This document shows positions 1 to 5,277 of a DNA stretch of 64,000 nucleotides, one piece after another (within the stretch, counting starts at the first letter, position 1; every line of letters begins with the position of its first letter). The notes beneath the pieces were generated by a model. It made no database searches. It had not been told where the DNA came from and saw nothing but the letters and a program-made list of their open reading frames with translations. Both the position numbers and the translations under genes were made by a program. The stretch is from Candidatus Gastranaerophilales bacterium (GTDB taxonomy: Bacteria; Cyanobacteriota; Vampirovibrionia; Gastranaerophilales; Gastranaerophilaceae), in NCBI GenBank assembly GCA_905235155.1, contig CAJOKJ010000014.1:247-64246 (forward strand). Direction: 5' to 3'.

Positions 1-801
1 AGTGTAAAAGACAGAATTGCAAAAGCAATGCTTGATGATGCAGAAAAAAGAGGTTTAATAAAAGAGGGTGCGACTATAATTGAGCCAACAAGCGGTAATA
101 CAGGTATTGGTTTAGCAGCAATTGCCGCATCAAGAGGGTACAAAATTATTTTGACTATGCCGGATACAATGAGTATTGAAAGAAGAAACTTATTAAAGGC
201 TTATGGTGCTGAACTTGTACTGACAGAAGGTGCAAAAGGGATGAAAGGAGCTATTGAAAAAGCGGAAGAATTACATAAAGAAATTGAGAATAGTATTATT
301 CCGGGTCAATTTGTAAATCCTGCAAATCCAAAAATGCACTATGAAACTACGGGCCCTGAAATTTGGAATGATACAAAAGGTAATGTGGATATATTTGTTG
401 CAGGTGTTGGAACAGGCGGAACCGTAAGCGGTGTAGGAAAATTTTTAAAAGAAAAAAATCCTGAAATAAAGGTTGTTGCAGTTGAGCCTGCAAGTTCACC
501 TGTTTTATCGGAGGGTAAATCGGGTTCGCATAAAATTCAAGGTATAGGGGCAGGTTTTGTGCCTGATACTTTGGATACAAAAATTTATGATGAAATTATT
601 ACTGTTGAAAATGAAGATGCATTTGAAACAGGAAGATTTTTGGCAAGAAAAGAGGCTTTATTAGTTGGAATTTCGGCAGGTGCAGCGGCTTGGGCAGGTA
701 TTCAACTGGCAAAAAGACCTGAAAACAAAGACAAAAATATAGTAGTATTATTACCTGATACAGGTGAAAGATATCTTTCTTCGCCTATGTTTGCAGATTA
801 A
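1..801 (+). CDS. cysK: Cysteine synthase A / O-acetylserine sulfhydrylase, 5'-truncated by window edge
   Basis: Frame is open from nt 1 ([10 protein letters not shown]...), so the PLP-lysine motif SVKDR sits at the window edge. GNTGIGLA and [10 protein letters not shown] loops and the [11 protein letters not shown] tail are typical of the CysK/CysM fold-II PLP family. Confidence 0.9.
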
Positions 802-814
802 TAAAGGATTTATT

Positions 815-895
815 ATGATTTACATTAAAAGACCAAATTACAAAAATTCATGTTGCTGTTACAAGAAAATTTATTGTTGTAACGGTAGTTTATGA
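815..895 (+). CDS. Candidate Cys-rich leader peptide, 26 aa (MIYIKRPNYKNSCCCYKKIYCCNGSL)
   Basis: ATG at 815 is preceded by AAGGA (804-808). Five of 26 codons are Cys (851-859 and 875-880). The ORF lies in the 170-nt spacer between cysK and a cysteine-salvage operon, directly upstream of a strong terminator. Confidence 0.35.
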   Translation: MIYIKRPNYKNSCCCYKKIYCCNGSL

Positions 896-921
896 TTTTA
901 TAGATGTAATGTAAATTATTA

Positions 922-959
922 CTCCTGTTATGGCAAATGTTATAACAGGAGTTTTTTTT
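922..959 (+). terminator. Intrinsic terminator / candidate attenuator hairpin
   Basis: Perfect 10-bp stem CTCCTGTTAT / ATAACAGGAG (922-931 / 942-951), extendable by G:U and C:G pairs, followed by T8 (952-959). The SD GGAGG of the next gene starts at 960. Confidence 0.8.
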
Positions 960-972
960 GGAGGATTAAAAA

Positions 973-1869
973 ATGATAGAAACACAAGAAAGTACAACTG
1001 CCAAAATATGTTCATTTGTAAGGGCATATCATGCTAATTTTATTAAAAATAAAATATTTGATGATTATTATGCATTTGAAATAATGGGTAAAGATGAATA
1101 TGAAGAAACGAAAAATTCACTTGTAAAAAAGTTTTTGCCCTGCTATAAATACAAAACTTTAGAAGAAATAAATAATTTATTTTATCCTTTGATAAATAAT
1201 TATTTTGCTCCAATTTTGCTTTCAAGAATTGCATTTGCAGAAAAAGAATTTAAAATATTTTCTTCTATTCATAAAACTTGCCAATATGTAATTTGTGGTG
1301 CAGGTTTAGATACATTTTCGTTGAGAAATGACAATTCAAATGTAAGAATTTTTGAACTTGACCATCCAAGTACTCAAAAATATAAACTAAAACGTATTTA
1401 TGAATTATTATGCAATATTCCGAAAAATACAACTTTTGTTTCTATTGATTTTGAAAAAGAAAAAATGGTCGATGTTTTAATAAAATCAGGATTTAACCCT
1501 GAAATTCCGACATTCTTTTCTATTTTAGGTGTAACTTATTATTTAAGTCTATATACATTTGAACAATCAATAAAAGATATATCTTCTCTTGCGGCAAATG
1601 GAAGCGAAGTTATATATGATTATCCTGATGAAACAACTTTTTCAAAAAAAGCAGCCGGCAGAGTTCAATTTTTAACAAAATTTACTGAAAATTGCGGTGA
1701 AAAAATGAAACATGGGTTTTCTTTTAAAGAAAATTTAAATATTCTTGAAAAATATAATTTTAATGTAATAAAACATCTTTCACCAAATGAAATACAAAAA
1801 CATTTTTTTGAAAATACAGAACAACAGGCTTATGAAAATGTTCATTTTGTAGGTGCTATAAAATATTAA
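973..1869 (+). CDS. Class I SAM-dependent methyltransferase (leucine carboxyl / O-methyltransferase-like family)
   Basis: VICGAGLDTFSLR ... RIFELDHPSTQKYK ... FFSILGVTYYLS pattern matches the LCM/TIGR00027-type SAM-MTases. GGAGG SD lies upstream. Confidence 0.7.
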   Translation: MIETQESTTAKICSFVRAYHANFIKNKIFDDYYAFEIMGKDEYEETKNSLVKKFLPCYKYKTLEEINNLFYPLINNYFAPILLSRIAFAEKEFKIFSSIHKTCQYVICGAGLDTFSLRNDNSNVRIFELDHPSTQKYKLKRIYELLCNIPKNTTFVSIDFEKEKMVDVLIKSGFNPEIPTFFSILGVTYYLSLYTFEQSIKDISSLAANGSEVIYDYPDETTFSKKAAGRVQFLTKFTENCGEKMKHGFSFKENLNILEKYNFNVIKHLSPNEIQKHFFENTEQQAYENVHFVGAIKY

Positions 1870-1888: not shown

Positions 1889-3034
1889 ATGAAAAATTAC
1901 AAAAATTTTGATTCAGCAGTAATACATGGCGGAATTTTCGGTGATGAAAAAACGGGTGCAGTAAATGTACCAATTTATCAAACATCAACTTACGAACAAG
2001 AAAAATTAGGAAAACACAAAGGATGGGAATATTCCAGAACAGGAAATCCTACAAGGGCAGCTTTGGAAAGTTTAATTGCAGAACTTGAACAAGGTGTTGC
2101 AGGTTTTGCTTTTGCTTCCGGCATGGCTGCTATTACCGCAGTTTTAAGTCTTTTTAAAAGTGGTGACAAAATTATTATTTCAGATAATATTTATGGAGGA
2201 ACTTTTAGAGTTTTAGACAAAGTATTTAACCATTTTAATATTACATACCAAATTGTCGATACAACAAATCTTGAGGCTGTGGAAAATGCTATTACAGATG
2301 ATGTTAAAGCTATTTTTATTGAAACTCCGACAAATCCGCTTTTGCGTGTTACTGATATTAAGGCTATTTCGGATATAGCTAAAAAACATAATATTTTATC
2401 AATAGCCGATAATACATTTATGACACCATATTTGCAACGTCCAATTGAACTTGGCAGCGATATTGTAATCCATAGTGCTACAAAATATCTTGGTGGACAT
2501 AGTGATATTATTGCCGGTCTTGTTGTCGTAAATTCGGAAGAACTTGCAGAAAAAATTGCATTTATCCAAAACTCAACAGGCGGAATTTTACAGCCGTTTG
2601 ATTCTTTTCTATTGATAAGAGGAATTAAAACTCTTGCCGTCAGAATGGACAGACACGTTGAAAATGCTCAAAAAACAGTTGAATATTTAAAAAATAAAGT
2701 CGGGGTTAAAAATATATATTATCCGATTAATAATGAAATAAATAAAAAACAGGCTAAAAATGGCGGTGTTATGCTGTCTTTTGAATTAAATGAGAATTAC
2801 AATGTGGAAAAATTCTTTAATTCTTTAAAATTTATAACTCTTGCGGAAAGTCTTGGCGGTGTGGAATCTCTAGTATGCCACCCCGCATCAATGACACATG
2901 CGTCTATTCCTGCCGACATAAGAAAAAAAGTTGGAATTACAGATAATTTAATACGTCTTTCTGTTGGAATTGAAAATATAAATGATATTCTTGAAGATTT
3001 AGAACAAGCAATTAATGAAAGCGAGGTAAAATAA
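1889..3034 (+). CDS. PLP-dependent trans-sulfuration enzyme (cystathionine gamma-lyase/gamma-synthase/beta-lyase family, MetB/MetC/MccB type)
   Basis: Cys/Met-metabolism PLP family signatures: YSRTGNPT, and HSATKYLGGHSD containing the PLP lysine. Length is 381 aa. Confidence 0.85.
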   Translation: MKNYKNFDSAVIHGGIFGDEKTGAVNVPIYQTSTYEQEKLGKHKGWEYSRTGNPTRAALESLIAELEQGVAGFAFASGMAAITAVLSLFKSGDKIIISDNIYGGTFRVLDKVFNHFNITYQIVDTTNLEAVENAITDDVKAIFIETPTNPLLRVTDIKAISDIAKKHNILSIADNTFMTPYLQRPIELGSDIVIHSATKYLGGHSDIIAGLVVVNSEELAEKIAFIQNSTGGILQPFDSFLLIRGIKTLAVRMDRHVENAQKTVEYLKNKVGVKNIYYPINNEINKKQAKNGGVMLSFELNENYNVEKFFNSLKFITLAESLGGVESLVCHPASMTHASIPADIRKKVGITDNLIRLSVGIENINDILEDLEQAINESEVK

Positions 3035-3945
3035 TGCATTATTACAATTCAATGCAAGATTTAATAGGAAACACACCACTTGTAAAATTAAATTATCTTG
3101 ATTTACCTAAAGAAATAAATTTATTTGCAAAATTAGAATTATATAATCCGTCAGGCAGCGTAAAAGACAGAACAGGTAAATATATGATTGAAAATGCCGA
3201 GAAAAAAGGTATTTTAAAAAAAGGCGGAACAATAATTGAAGCAACAGCAGGAAATACAGGTTTGGGAATTGCTTTTGCCGCTCTAAACAAAGGTTATAAA
3301 ATAATTTTTGTTGTACCCGAAAAATTTTCTCAGGAAAAACAAACTTTAATGCGTGCATTAGGTGCTGAAATTATAAACACCCCGAGAGAAGGCGGAATGT
3401 TAGGTGCTGCTCAAAAAACTCAGGAGCTGATTAAAGAAATACCAAATTCAATTTCACTTGAACAATTTAAAAATCAAAGTAATCCTCTTGCACATTATGA
3501 AACAACAGGCAAAGAAATTTATAATGACCTTGACGGTGATATAGATTATTTAGTAGCAGGTGCAGGAAGCGGTGGAACTTTTAGCGGTGTTGTAAAATAT
3601 TTAAAAGAAAAAAATCCAAACATAAAAGGTGTTCTTGCCGACCCTATCGGCTCTACAATGGGTGGTGGAAAACATGCAGATTATAATATTGAAGGTATTG
3701 GAAATGATTTTATTGCTGATACAATGGATATGTCACTTGTAGACAAAGTTATAAAAATAAGTGATAATGAAGCATTTGAATGGGCTAACAAATTAGCTTT
3801 AAAAGAAGGTATTTTTGCAGGTTCATCATCAGGTGCTGCAATAGCTGCCGCAAAAAAATTAACAGATACAGGCGTAAAAGGCAATATTGTTGTTATTTTA
3901 CCGGATAGAGGCGATAGATATTTTAGTAAACATTTGTATAATTAA
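3034..3945 (+). CDS. Cysteine synthase / cystathionine beta-synthase family PLP enzyme (CysK/CysM/MccA type)
   Basis: NPSGSVKDR PLP-lysine motif, GNTGLGIA, GAGSGGTFSG. Start overlaps the stop of the upstream gene (ATAATG), suggesting translational coupling. Confidence 0.85.
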   Translation: MHYYNSMQDLIGNTPLVKLNYLDLPKEINLFAKLELYNPSGSVKDRTGKYMIENAEKKGILKKGGTIIEATAGNTGLGIAFAALNKGYKIIFVVPEKFSQEKQTLMRALGAEIINTPREGGMLGAAQKTQELIKEIPNSISLEQFKNQSNPLAHYETTGKEIYNDLDGDIDYLVAGAGSGGTFSGVVKYLKEKNPNIKGVLADPIGSTMGGGKHADYNIEGIGNDFIADTMDMSLVDKVIKISDNEAFEWANKLALKEGIFAGSSSGAAIAAAKKLTDTGVKGNIVVILPDRGDRYFSKHLYN

Positions 3946-3957
3946 AAGGATTTTATT

Positions 3958-5277
3958 ATGAACAATTTAGACCATAAAGAACTAAAACCGTGGAGAGATG
4001 AGAGTTTTAAGGCTCTTATTCCGTTTATTGCTTTTGTAATCTTCTATTTTGGTTTTTCTATTATTACTCAAGATTTTTCTAAAGTTCCTATGACGGTTGC
4101 TTTTATTTTTTCTTCTGCAATTGCTCTAATTTTAAATCATAAGGAAAAATTAAATAAAAAAATTGAAATATTTGCTCTTGGTATGGGTAAAAAAGACATT
4201 ATGATTATGTGTCTTATTTTTGTTCTTGCAGGTGCGTTTACTGCAACTGCACAAGCTGTTGGGGCGGTTGATGCTGCTGTTGCAATCGCACAGCATTTTG
4301 TTCCTGCAAAATTTATTGTGTCAGGAATTTTTGTTGTTTCTGCATTAATTTCTCTGGCGGTTGGAACTTCTTGCGGTACAATTGCAGCAGTTGTGCCTAT
4401 TGCAGTTACATTGGCTCAATCTTTAGGTTTAAATCCTGCTTTTTTAGTTGGTGCAACTGTTGGTGGTGCTATGTTTGGTGATAATTTGTCTTTAATCTCA
4501 GATACTACAATAGCCTCAACTCGTACTCAAAATGTTGAAATGCGTGATAAAATGATTTATAACTTGAGAATAGTTACTATTCCTGCAATATTGTGCATTT
4601 TACTTTACATGTTGCCGTTTTTTTCAAACTCAAATGTTGATGTTACAAATATTACTATAAATATTGATGCTTATATAAAAATTTTACCTTATATCTTATT
4701 ACTAATTTTTGGCTTAATGAATATCAATGTAATGTTTTTATTATTAATCGGAATTATTTTAAATACAGTTATAGGTATTAGTTTTGGTGATTTTGATATT
4801 TGGACTGCATTCAGTAAAATGGGTGACGGAACTGTTAGTATGGCAAATACTCTCATAGTTGCAATGCTTGCAGGAGGTTTGTTGCAAATGGTACGTTGGA
4901 ATGGTGGTATAAGTTATATTATTAATAAGACAGAGTACCTTATACATAACAGAAAACATTGTGAATTTGGAATTTGTTTTTTGGTTGGTGTAATTAACTT
5001 ATTTACCGCAAATAACACTGTTGCAATTATTACAGCAGGGCCTATTGCAAAAGAAATTAGTGAAAAATACGGAGTTGACCCAAGAAGAACTGCAAGTTTA
5101 TTAGATACAACATCTTGTTTTGTACAAGGAATTATACCTTATGGGGCTCAAATTCTTATTGCAACAAGCCTTGCAGCATCAGTATCTTTAAGTTCTTTTT
5201 CAATTATAAAATGCTTACTATATCCTGCATTAATAGGTTTAGGACTATTTGTGTCACTAACTTTTGCTAAAAAATAA
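3958..5277 (+). CDS. NhaC-family Na+/H+ antiporter-type transporter (possible amino-acid/methionine transporter)
   Basis: 439 aa, about 11-12 hydrophobic segments, NhaC-like overall pattern. It follows the trans-sulfuration genes by 12 nt. Confidence 0.7.
   Translation: MNNLDHKELKPWRDESFKALIPFIAFVIFYFGFSIITQDFSKVPMTVAFIFSSAIALILNHKEKLNKKIEIFALGMGKKDIMIMCLIFVLAGAFTATAQAVGAVDAAVAIAQHFVPAKFIVSGIFVVSALISLAVGTSCGTIAAVVPIAVTLAQSLGLNPAFLVGATVGGAMFGDNLSLISDTTIASTRTQNVEMRDKMIYNLRIVTIPAILCILLYMLPFFSNSNVDVTNITINIDAYIKILPYILLLIFGLMNINVMFLLLIGIILNTVIGISFGDFDIWTAFSKMGDGTVSMANTLIVAMLAGGLLQMVRWNGGISYIINKTEYLIHNRKHCEFGICFLVGVINLFTANNTVAIITAGPIAKEISEKYGVDPRRTASLLDTTSCFVQGIIPYGAQILIATSLAASVSLSSFSIIKCLLYPALIGLGLFVSLTFAKK

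Follow-up and report, generated by a model that had tools for sequence, protein, structure and literature searches.

The spacer between cysK and the gene that follows it, in a 64,000-nucleotide (nt) stretch of contig CAJOKJ010000014.1 from a Candidatus Gastranaerophilales bacterium, most probably carries a classical ribosome-mediated (trp-type) transcription attenuator that senses charged tRNA-Cys. The whole of this 64-kb stretch is called the window below, and positions are counted from its first letter. The attenuator would lie inside an operon made up of cysK, a methyltransferase gene, mccB, mccA and a transporter gene. The sequence features by which such attenuators are recognized are present in the spacer: an open reading frame (ORF) led by a Shine-Dalgarno (SD) sequence, several cognate codons in a row, an intrinsic terminator, an antiterminator that is mutually exclusive with it, and a spacing of these parts that suits a ribosome-operated switch. 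The case rests on these observed features together with folding energies, the conservation of the ORF and of three helices, and synteny.

A Cysteine-Codon Leader and a Terminator Between cysK and the Methyltransferase Gene

The Cys codons of the leader ORF (Table 1) fall into two groups, TGT TGC TGT at 851-859 and TGT TGT at 875-880, and the leader ATG stands 13 nt past the cysK stop codon. A first-pass annotation of this DNA, prepared from the letters alone, had placed the leader SD, the ORF (815-895), its Cys codons and the GGAGG of the downstream gene, all of which proved exact when checked against the sequence. It had also described a perfect 10-base-pair (bp) hairpin (922-931/942-951) with T8 ahead of the GGAGG; this is present, and its stem extends to 14 bp (921-934/939-952).

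The 171-nt spacer has a minimum free energy (MFE) of -44.9 kcal/mol (z = -5.9), and 0/200 shuffled versions folded equally well. The predicted fold consists of three elements, namely an outer helix, an inner hairpin with the first Cys run as its 5' arm and 877-895 as its 3' arm, and the terminator. On the opposite strand a number of the inner hairpin's pairs, being G.U here, would become C-A mismatches, so the structure is specific to the RNA of the + strand. Directly 3' of this hairpin stands UUUUAU (896-901), and the SD of the first controlled gene (960-964) is unpaired in every predicted structure.

A fold so strongly non-random, with an extra outer helix that a simple attenuator model does not need, might also be expected of a riboswitch for a sulfur metabolite or of a leader bound by an RNA-binding regulator, with translation of the ORF irrelevant. 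We regard this as highly improbable, given that no family of Rfam 15 matches the window, positions 700-1100 or 20 related loci, and that beyond the terminator only the arm with the Cys codons and its partner are conserved across the wider family described below, with no conserved multi-helix junction or unpaired core. At the gathering threshold, no riboswitch of any class was found in the 64 kb. A T-box (RF00230) was found neither in the 64 kb or the 20 related loci at the gathering threshold nor in 700-1100 at E <= 10, and Rfam gave no S-adenosylmethionine (SAM)-I/S-box riboswitch on either strand of the window, including the antisense arrangement of Clostridium acetobutylicum. The only Rfam match in the 64 kb was a tRNA gene at 23284-23355 on the - strand.

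Table 1. Features of the cysK-methyltransferase spacer and of the operon around it (window coordinates).
Feature	Position	Strand	Remarks
cysK, 3' part (O-acetylserine sulfhydrylase)	28-801	+	stop TAA 799-801; source of the leader-carrying transcript
Leader SD, AAGGA	804-808	+	2 nt past cysK stop, 6 nt before ATG; anti-SD duplex -5.5 kcal/mol; kept in close relatives
Leader ORF, 26 codons, MIYIKRPNYKNSCCCYKKIYCCNGSL	815-895	+	ATG 815, stop TGA 893-895
Outer helix, 5' arm	815-827	+	includes the leader start codon; pairs with 907-919; in MFE and centroid structures
Segment 1 (5' arm of 1:2 hairpin)	848-864	+	holds the proposed sensor codons TGT TGC TGT 851-859
Segment 2	876-889	+	partner of segment 1 or of the terminator 5' arm (antiterminator); holds second Cys pair 875-880
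Outer helix, 3' arm	907-919	+	stops 1 nt short of the terminator
Segment 3 (terminator 5' arm)	921-934	+	from folding
Segment 4 (terminator 3' arm)	939-952	+	14-bp stem with 921-934
U8 tract of the intrinsic terminator	952-959	+	read from sequence
GGAGG SD of first controlled gene	960-964	+	ATG of that gene at 973
SAM-dependent methyltransferase (LCM/TIGR00027 family), first controlled gene	973-1869	+	Pfam PF04072; NCBIfam TIGR00027, 124 bits, above cut-off
MccB-type cystathionine gamma-lyase/homocysteine desulfhydrase	1889-3034	+	Pfam Cys_Met_Meta_PP; NCBIfam PRK07671, 578 bits, slightly below the cut-off of 594
MccA-type pyridoxal-phosphate (PLP) enzyme (cysteine synthase/cystathionine beta-synthase family)	3034-3945	+	Pfam PALP; about 340 bits with the NCBIfam models cysKM and cystathionine beta-synthase, none above its cut-off
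NhaC-superfamily transporter	3958-5277	+	Pfam Na_H_antiporter; last operon gene; synteny kept in L001, L003, L006 and L093

Folding Energetics and Geometry of the Proposed Switch

In the window the 1:2 hairpin has an energy of -16.0 kcal/mol and the terminator stem (3:4) one of -19.1 kcal/mol, while the 2:3 pairing amounts to -13.5 kcal/mol when folded as a hairpin and to -10.6 kcal/mol when taken as a duplex. The first-pass annotation had proposed this 1:2 / 2:3 / 3:4 topology, and would have counted a 2:3 pairing negligible beside 3:4 as evidence against it. At -13.5 vs -19.1 kcal/mol the pairing is far from negligible, and it is conserved; the topology as a whole is borne out by folding and by the conservation of all three helices.

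Folding under ribosome masks, as the annotation had recommended, was run with an assumed footprint of about 30 nt, for which a mask over 839-868 places the A site on the second Cys codon. With this mask and a transcript ending at 938, when segment 4 has yet to be made, the MFE structure was the 2:3 antiterminator. The same transcript with no ribosome on it formed 1:2 and the outer helix and left segment 3 free, and masking 878-907, as by a ribosome at the stop codon, made segment 2 unavailable and again left segment 3 free. The truncated folds thus switch as expected. Equilibrium folding of the full transcript does not discriminate between the scenarios, and only the truncated (co-transcriptional) folds are informative.

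From the first Cys codon it is 25 nt to the start of segment 2, and the leader stop codon lies 4 nt past the end of this segment. The second Cys pair (875-880), inside segment 2, is on this model not part of the sensor, because a ribosome stalled there would cover segment 2 and favor termination. In agreement with this, the second pair is untranslated in two relatives, L006 and L007.

Conservation in Close Relatives

Close relatives of the window (the window group) are represented by six distinct spacer versions from metagenome contigs (the window, L088, L090, L003, L001 and L006), with methyltransferases 80-100% identical to the window's. A metagenome scan with the window-type leader pattern gave two matches only, the near-identical L088 and the unrelated L089. 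The SD, start, frame and CCC run of the leader are kept in 6/6 spacers of the group. L006 and L007 have a GTG start and an in-frame 3-nt insertion ahead of the Cys run, and in both a TAA stop precedes the second Cys pair, so that only the first Cys run is universally translated. The leader of L090 has six Cys (CCC..CCC), and elsewhere the peptide is substituted freely (K/R, P/N, S/L, G/R). The first-pass annotation had staked its reading on the short ORF, and not the hairpin alone, being conserved, and this is the pattern found: the ORF is kept in the six relatives across an in-frame indel, and a Cys-rich, SD-led leader stands at the corresponding place in about 68 of 78 distant loci.

The helices of the window group are likewise preserved. 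Paired cells make up 98% of the 1:2 helix and 95% of the 3:4 helix, the latter with compensatory U-A to C-G changes. For 2:3 the figure is 97.4%, compared with 31-74% when the partner was slid by 1-3 columns, and at six positions a one-sided change retains the pair. The outer helix (815-827/907-919) is paired in 92% of cells, and two of its pairs have changed on both sides.

In L091 and L092, whose methyltransferases (56% identity) make them the nearest outgroup, only 39 nt separate cysK from the methyltransferase gene and there is no leader (L091:2461-2501), indicating that the sensor was gained or lost within this neighborhood. A gene for an Rrf2-family regulator adjoins the operon in both (L091:5547-5903), which suggests a protein repressor in place of the attenuator.

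A Wider Family of Cysteine Leaders

Scanning one genome per GTDB species with a methyltransferase alignment yielded 80 more distant loci (45-54% identity), in which the usual gene order is cysK, spacer, methyltransferase, 0-2 extra genes, mccB and mccA. The carriers are labeled Ruminococcus, Oscillospiraceae, Lachnospiraceae, Anaerotignum, Ruminiclostridium, Bianquea, Treponema and others, and cultured carriers include Anaerotignum propionicum, Ruminiclostridium sufflavum and Bianquea renquensis. The search of related genomes for a short Cys-run ORF with a terminator, another suggestion of the first-pass annotation, found, in the roughly 68 of 78 distant spacers mentioned above, leader ORFs that are SD-led, 20-53 codons long and rich in Cys (3-7 residues), and an intrinsic terminator with a U run, ending 16-45 nt ahead of the gene, in 59 loci. 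The terminator finder was limited to the last 75 nt before the gene and over-extends some stems (L009, L013, L022, L026); an unrestricted finder often took the 1:2 hairpin and TTTT instead. A strict leader detector, which asked for 4 or more Cys within 7 residues, a stop codon and an ATG whose SD energy reached -5 kcal/mol or better, was positive in 54/78 upstream regions and in 0/78 of each of four control sets, consisting of the reverse complement of the upstream regions and three regions inside the gene.

The typical main-family leader reads ...SAE..(F/S)G...CC(M/L)CC(C).DTGG..., and so shows some conservation beyond the Cys run. This, with the five small proteins of leader type that are called in public gene sets, is what one would expect of a functional Cys-rich micropeptide, binding metal, taking part in redox chemistry or regulating in trans, next to a hairpin that merely terminates cysK. 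That explanation seems to us unlikely by a wide margin. The conserved non-Cys residues coincide with RNA helices: DTGG is encoded by ACAGGCGG, a copy of the terminator 3' arm, and SAE..FSG by the two hairpin arms GCCGAA/UUCGGC. Outside the helices both length (20-53 amino acids, aa) and sequence vary freely, and the window's peptide has only the Cys run in common with the main family. Neither Pfam nor NCBIfam has a family for the seven leader peptides searched, and a protein database search with a typical main-family leader gave only five unnamed clusters in 5.8 billion. A micropeptide would also leave the complementarity between segment 2 and the terminator 5' arm unexplained.

Under the attenuator reading this complementarity is the core of one design that recurs across the family. 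The Cys codons (e.g., UGC UGU CUG UGU UGU) constitute segment 1, which binds segment 2 (ACAGGCGG or ACAGACGG) via G.U pairs; these two segment 2 sequences account for the conserved DTGG/DTDG residues. Segment 2 is in turn a near-copy of the terminator 3' arm and is for this reason complementary to the terminator 5' arm (CCGCCUGU or CCGUCUGU), whose best partner typically lies 17-30 nt after the first Cys codon. Judged by their sequences, segments 2 and 3 change together between lineages. The main family has two forms of the segment 2/segment 3 pair, ACAGACGG / CCGUCUGU and ACAGGCGG / CCGCCUGU, whereas other loci have UCAGGCGG / CCGCCUGA (L036), GCGGACGG / CCGUCCGU (L046), AAAGGCGG / CCGCCUU (L066) and ACGAGCGG / CCGCUUGU (L050); Anaerotignum has GGAGGG / CUCCCCUUG in L041 vs GAAGGG / CUCCUCUUG in L030, and the window has GUAACGGUAGU / ACUCCUGUUAU. 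For leaders of the window group, 93-100% of the segments 3 of other loci are poorer partners than their own.

A covariance model (R1), made from 21 Ruminococcus-type members and built on the 1:2 and 3:4 structure only, finds 48 elements in loci of other lineages, Treponema included. In the wider-family alignment, paired cells account for 98.6% of 1:2 and 96.6% of 3:4, with covariation above all 500 shuffles, although the alignment was fitted to both of these helices, which favors them. The 2:3 helix, to which the alignment was not fitted, is paired in 91.8% of cells compared with 29-58% in slid controls, and its column pair 46/127 occurs as G.U, A-U and G-C. RNAalifold on the 21-sequence main group found no pair changed on both sides, the group being too conserved.

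The window element shares the position and architecture of the family, following cysK and preceding an LCM-type methyltransferase-mccB-mccA series, with Cys codons in segment 1 and a segment 2 that nearly repeats the terminator 3' arm. A shared origin with the main family is plausible, as the element occupies the same slot between the same genes and belongs to a genome of 30% GC. Whether it is an AT-rich minimal form of a widespread, uncurated cysteine-attenuator family that has variants in Negativicutes and Treponema and that, within the cysK-methyltransferase-mccBA operons of Clostridia from gut and rumen, replaces the Cys T-box, is in our judgment an evenly balanced question.

The family is not uniform. 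Selenomonas leaders (L051:2423-2486, L060, L062, L065, L069, L072) begin MKC(D/I)CC..., have 19-20 aa and stop 14-22 nt before the methyltransferase ATG, with no terminator between. Their sequences suggest that they may be a translational-coupling variant of the same sensor, and a non-termination variant thus seems to exist in the family. For the window it could accordingly be asked whether stalling at the Cys codons acts by some route other than intrinsic termination, such as translational unmasking or coupling of the mycobacterial kind, Rho-dependent termination or mRNA stability. We think this unlikely, if somewhat less so than the micropeptide, because a textbook intrinsic terminator with a 14-bp stem and U8, the strongest in the 64 kb, stands between leader and gene, a conserved pairing joins its 5' arm to segment 2, and the SD at 960-964 is not sequestered in the predicted structures.

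Other peculiarities of individual leaders were noted. In most main-family loci (e.g., L009:2298-2329, L008, L019) the SAE..(F/S)G residues upstream of the Cys run are encoded by a hairpin GCCGAA.. / ..UUCGGC or UCCGGC, at which polymerase may pause and which is missing from the window's short leader. Between segment 2 and the terminator, Ruminococcus-type loci share a further small hairpin, GUUUUAU...GUAAAAC (alignment A4 columns 61-84, e.g., L020:1420-1445), around or just past the leader stop and superfluous to the four-segment model. L055 has a second, longer Cys ORF (57 aa) further upstream, with a strong terminator-like hairpin about 33 nt past its stop.

Chance Expectation Within the Window

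The most skeptical reading of the spacer is that it is a plain cysK terminator region in which the Cys ORF is a by-product of a U/G-rich hairpin in an AT-rich genome. Cys codons do pair readily with G/A-rich arms through G.U, and a count over both strands of the window gives 37 copies of the 9-mer TGYTGYTGY, most of them within genes but not in their frame, so the window by itself is suggestive only and not compelling. At the level of protein the leader is more unusual. The annotation's remark that Cys is rare in the proteins of this window holds, as Cys makes up 1.5% of the residues of the 60 long ORFs and 0/60 contain a CCC tripeptide; the leader is the sole CCC-containing ORF that lies mainly outside long ORFs. 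No other terminator-like hairpin in the 64 kb is as stable as its terminator, which begins 119-120 nt past the cysK stop, whereas the other strong ones begin 20-59 nt past a stop codon; the annotation had given 120 nt here and about 6-50 nt for the others. It is the comparative data that, at the level of sequence, raise the leader above chance: the Cys frame, complete with SD, start codon and stop codon, is kept across an indel and across phyla, and the strict detector was positive in 54/78 upstream regions vs 0/78 in controls. An origin as a mere by-product is on these grounds barely credible.

The standard genetic code applies: the 60 long ORFs total 18,926 aa, take up about 89% of the window length and include 3 that end in TGA. 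A reading by code 4 (TGA = Trp), under which the leader ORF would be longer, was rejected on this evidence. The second match of the metagenome scan, L089:6512-6544 (JGI contig Ga0080004_1131460), is an unrelated GT-rich repetitive coding stretch, and indicates that Cys-codon-like strings arise by chance in repetitive sequence.

Proposed Mechanism and Points That Weigh Against It

Leader ATG and cysK stop could both be located in 51 loci, and in every one of these the ATG follows the stop by 12-49 nt, a gap that leaves no room for a promoter of its own, and the leader is thus read from the cysK transcript. The element appears from these distances to be an intra-operon attenuator within a transcription unit that starts at cysK. 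To the observations given above, the scheme that follows adds leader translation, stalling at Cys codons, the kinetics of helix competition and a response to cysteine, which we infer.

Transcription would start at the cysK promoter, and the leader would be translated on the same mRNA from 815, possibly by ribosomes that reinitiate there after finishing at the cysK stop 13 nt upstream. If no ribosome is present, 1:2 would pair and segment 3 would be free; if Cys-tRNA is sufficient, the ribosome would run to the TGA at 893-895 and cover segment 2 (876-889). Under either condition 3:4 and U8 would form, the transcript would end at about 959 and cysK alone would be expressed. If Cys-tRNA is scarce, the ribosome would stall on TGT TGC TGT (851-859) and cover segment 1, upon which the free segment 2 would pair with segment 3 (921-934) as it emerges, block the terminator and permit read-through into the genes of the Met-to-Cys route. 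The 1:2 hairpin and the UUUUAU at 896-901 could serve as a pause site that synchronizes ribosome and polymerase.

Several points weigh against an attenuator of this kind. At equilibrium, every masked scenario that includes segment 4 ends in the terminator (probability 1.0), meaning that the switch must be kinetic, as in other attenuators. Transcription and translation are reportedly largely uncoupled in Bacillus subtilis; if uncoupling holds in this lineage as well, a pause mechanism would be needed. The outer helix could, on the folding model, pre-empt 2:3 when a second ribosome is absent from the start region, the two being topologically incompatible because only 1 nt lies between 919 and 921; the helix may limit antitermination to transcripts with a second ribosome on the start region, or it may merely stabilize the terminated RNA. 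The comparative data have weak places too. Only 2 pairs of the wider-family 2:3 helix have changed on both sides, double-sided covariation within subgroups is sparse owing to the high conservation of most helix columns, and the compensatory 2:3 cases come from between-lineage comparisons. Finally, R1 applied to the whole window at E <= 10 gave no match at 842-959, and with filters off on 700-1100 its top match, 848-960, scored only 7.5 bits (E = 0.07 for 401 nt), so that the model of the main group does not recognize the window element.

Relation to Known Systems

Leader-peptide attenuation is textbook knowledge for trp, his, leu, thr, pheA and ilv of Proteobacteria, and his and leu/ilv leaders have been reported in some Firmicutes. 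With these classical attenuators the window element has in common an SD-led ORF with a run of cognate codons, the 1:2, 2:3 and 3:4 helices with a U tract, and a stop codon so placed that a finishing ribosome would cover segment 2. It differs from them in that it would sense cysteine, lies between two genes of one transcription unit and not behind a promoter, and uses the regulatory codons themselves, through G.U pairs, as segment 1; the window group adds a helix that joins the start codon to the pre-terminator spacer.

Cysteine leaders of other kinds have been reported. uORFC-8-2 is a predicted attenuator upstream of cysS in Rhodobacterales (PMC8632094), and like the window element it has tandem Cys codons in the first stem followed by an intrinsic terminator and presumably senses Cys-tRNA. 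However, it belongs to Alphaproteobacteria, regulates the cysteinyl-tRNA synthetase and has two Cys codons only, and no sequence relationship between the two was found (Rfam, window and 700-1100 at E <= 10). In Actinobacteria, Cys-rich leader peptides without terminators have been predicted (PMC1262725), and in mycobacteria polycysteine leaderless small ORFs that unmask a ribosome-binding site have been verified experimentally (bioRxiv 10.1101/834739). There, as proposed for the window element, upstream runs of Cys codons tie operons of cysteine metabolism to cysteine limitation via stalling, but those ORFs are leaderless and without an intrinsic terminator, while the window element has an SD, a terminator and an antiterminator. 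The features of the mycobacterial type are indeed missing from the window, where the leader is SD-led and close behind cysK, a terminator is present and the downstream SD is unpaired.

The closest parallel in function is found in C. acetobutylicum, C. perfringens and C. botulinum, which have a Cys T-box upstream of ubiG-mccB-mccA(-luxS) (PMC2566862, PMC2940859). The Clostridium ubiG-mccBA operon converts methionine to cysteine and, when cysteine is depleted, is induced through the T-box and premature termination (PMC2566862, PMC2940859), so that both signal and output are physiologically established for these genes. Operon type and, on the proposed model, signal (tRNA-Cys charging) and relief of premature termination are the same in the two systems, whereas the sensor is a tRNA-binding RNA in Clostridium and would be a translating ribosome in the window element. 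On sequence grounds this looks like a non-orthologous replacement of the Cys T-box sensor by a leader peptide; switches between T-box and leader peptide for the same gene have been noted before (PMC2965389).

No description of a Cys leader in Clostridia or other Firmicutes was found in the searchable literature, though most subscription journals were outside its coverage and an earlier description is possible. The first-pass annotation had considered a leader-peptide Cys attenuator in this lineage new; this stands for the lineage and the operon, and the kind of regulator has precedents (PMC1262725, bioRxiv 10.1101/834739, PMC8632094).

Implications

Leader-peptide attenuation is considered rare in Bacillota, and the coupling of transcription and translation has been questioned there. 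If the family is what it appears to be, ribosome-coupled attenuation would be a common mode of Cys-tRNA sensing in Bacillota, and cysteine would join the amino acids sensed there by trp-type attenuation. The family would also be a naturally occurring system in which to ask whether ribosomes can keep up with RNA polymerase in these Firmicutes, and a case of sensor replacement in which, for the same operon and signal, a leader peptide does here what a T-box does in Clostridium. Within the operon the element would divide one transcription unit, such that cysK is always made and the reverse-transsulfuration genes only when translation reports a shortage of cysteine. For annotation, it would amount to a conserved small ORF and RNA element missed by gene callers and Rfam in dozens of gut and rumen genomes.

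Genes of the Operon and Its Promoter

The cysK gene was identified by NCBIfam TIGR01139 (401 bits, above cut-off) and also by Pfam PALP. The annotation had taken the controlled genes for a Met/homocysteine-to-Cys route, a view upheld by the family matches of the SAM methyltransferase, the MccB-type and the MccA-type enzymes (Table 1). The methyltransferase gene sits where ubiG does in Clostridium ubiG-mccBA, and by this analogy its product is presumably equivalent in role to UbiG (SAM to S-adenosylhomocysteine, SAH). The NhaC-superfamily transporter may import methionine or another sulfur amino acid, a substrate suggested by the S-box-controlled metT of C. perfringens, which encodes a probable methionine transporter (PMC2940859).

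A near-consensus cysK promoter, TTGACA-17-TATATT, is found in the window's own genome (L093:150-215) and in L001 (L001:1664-1725). Directly after it and before the ATG, L093 and L001 have a conserved inverted repeat, AAACCTA-N9-TAGGTTT, which may be an operator for a repressor, for example a protein of the CymR/Rrf2 type. In L006 the cysK promoter is present and the sequence 3' of it differs.

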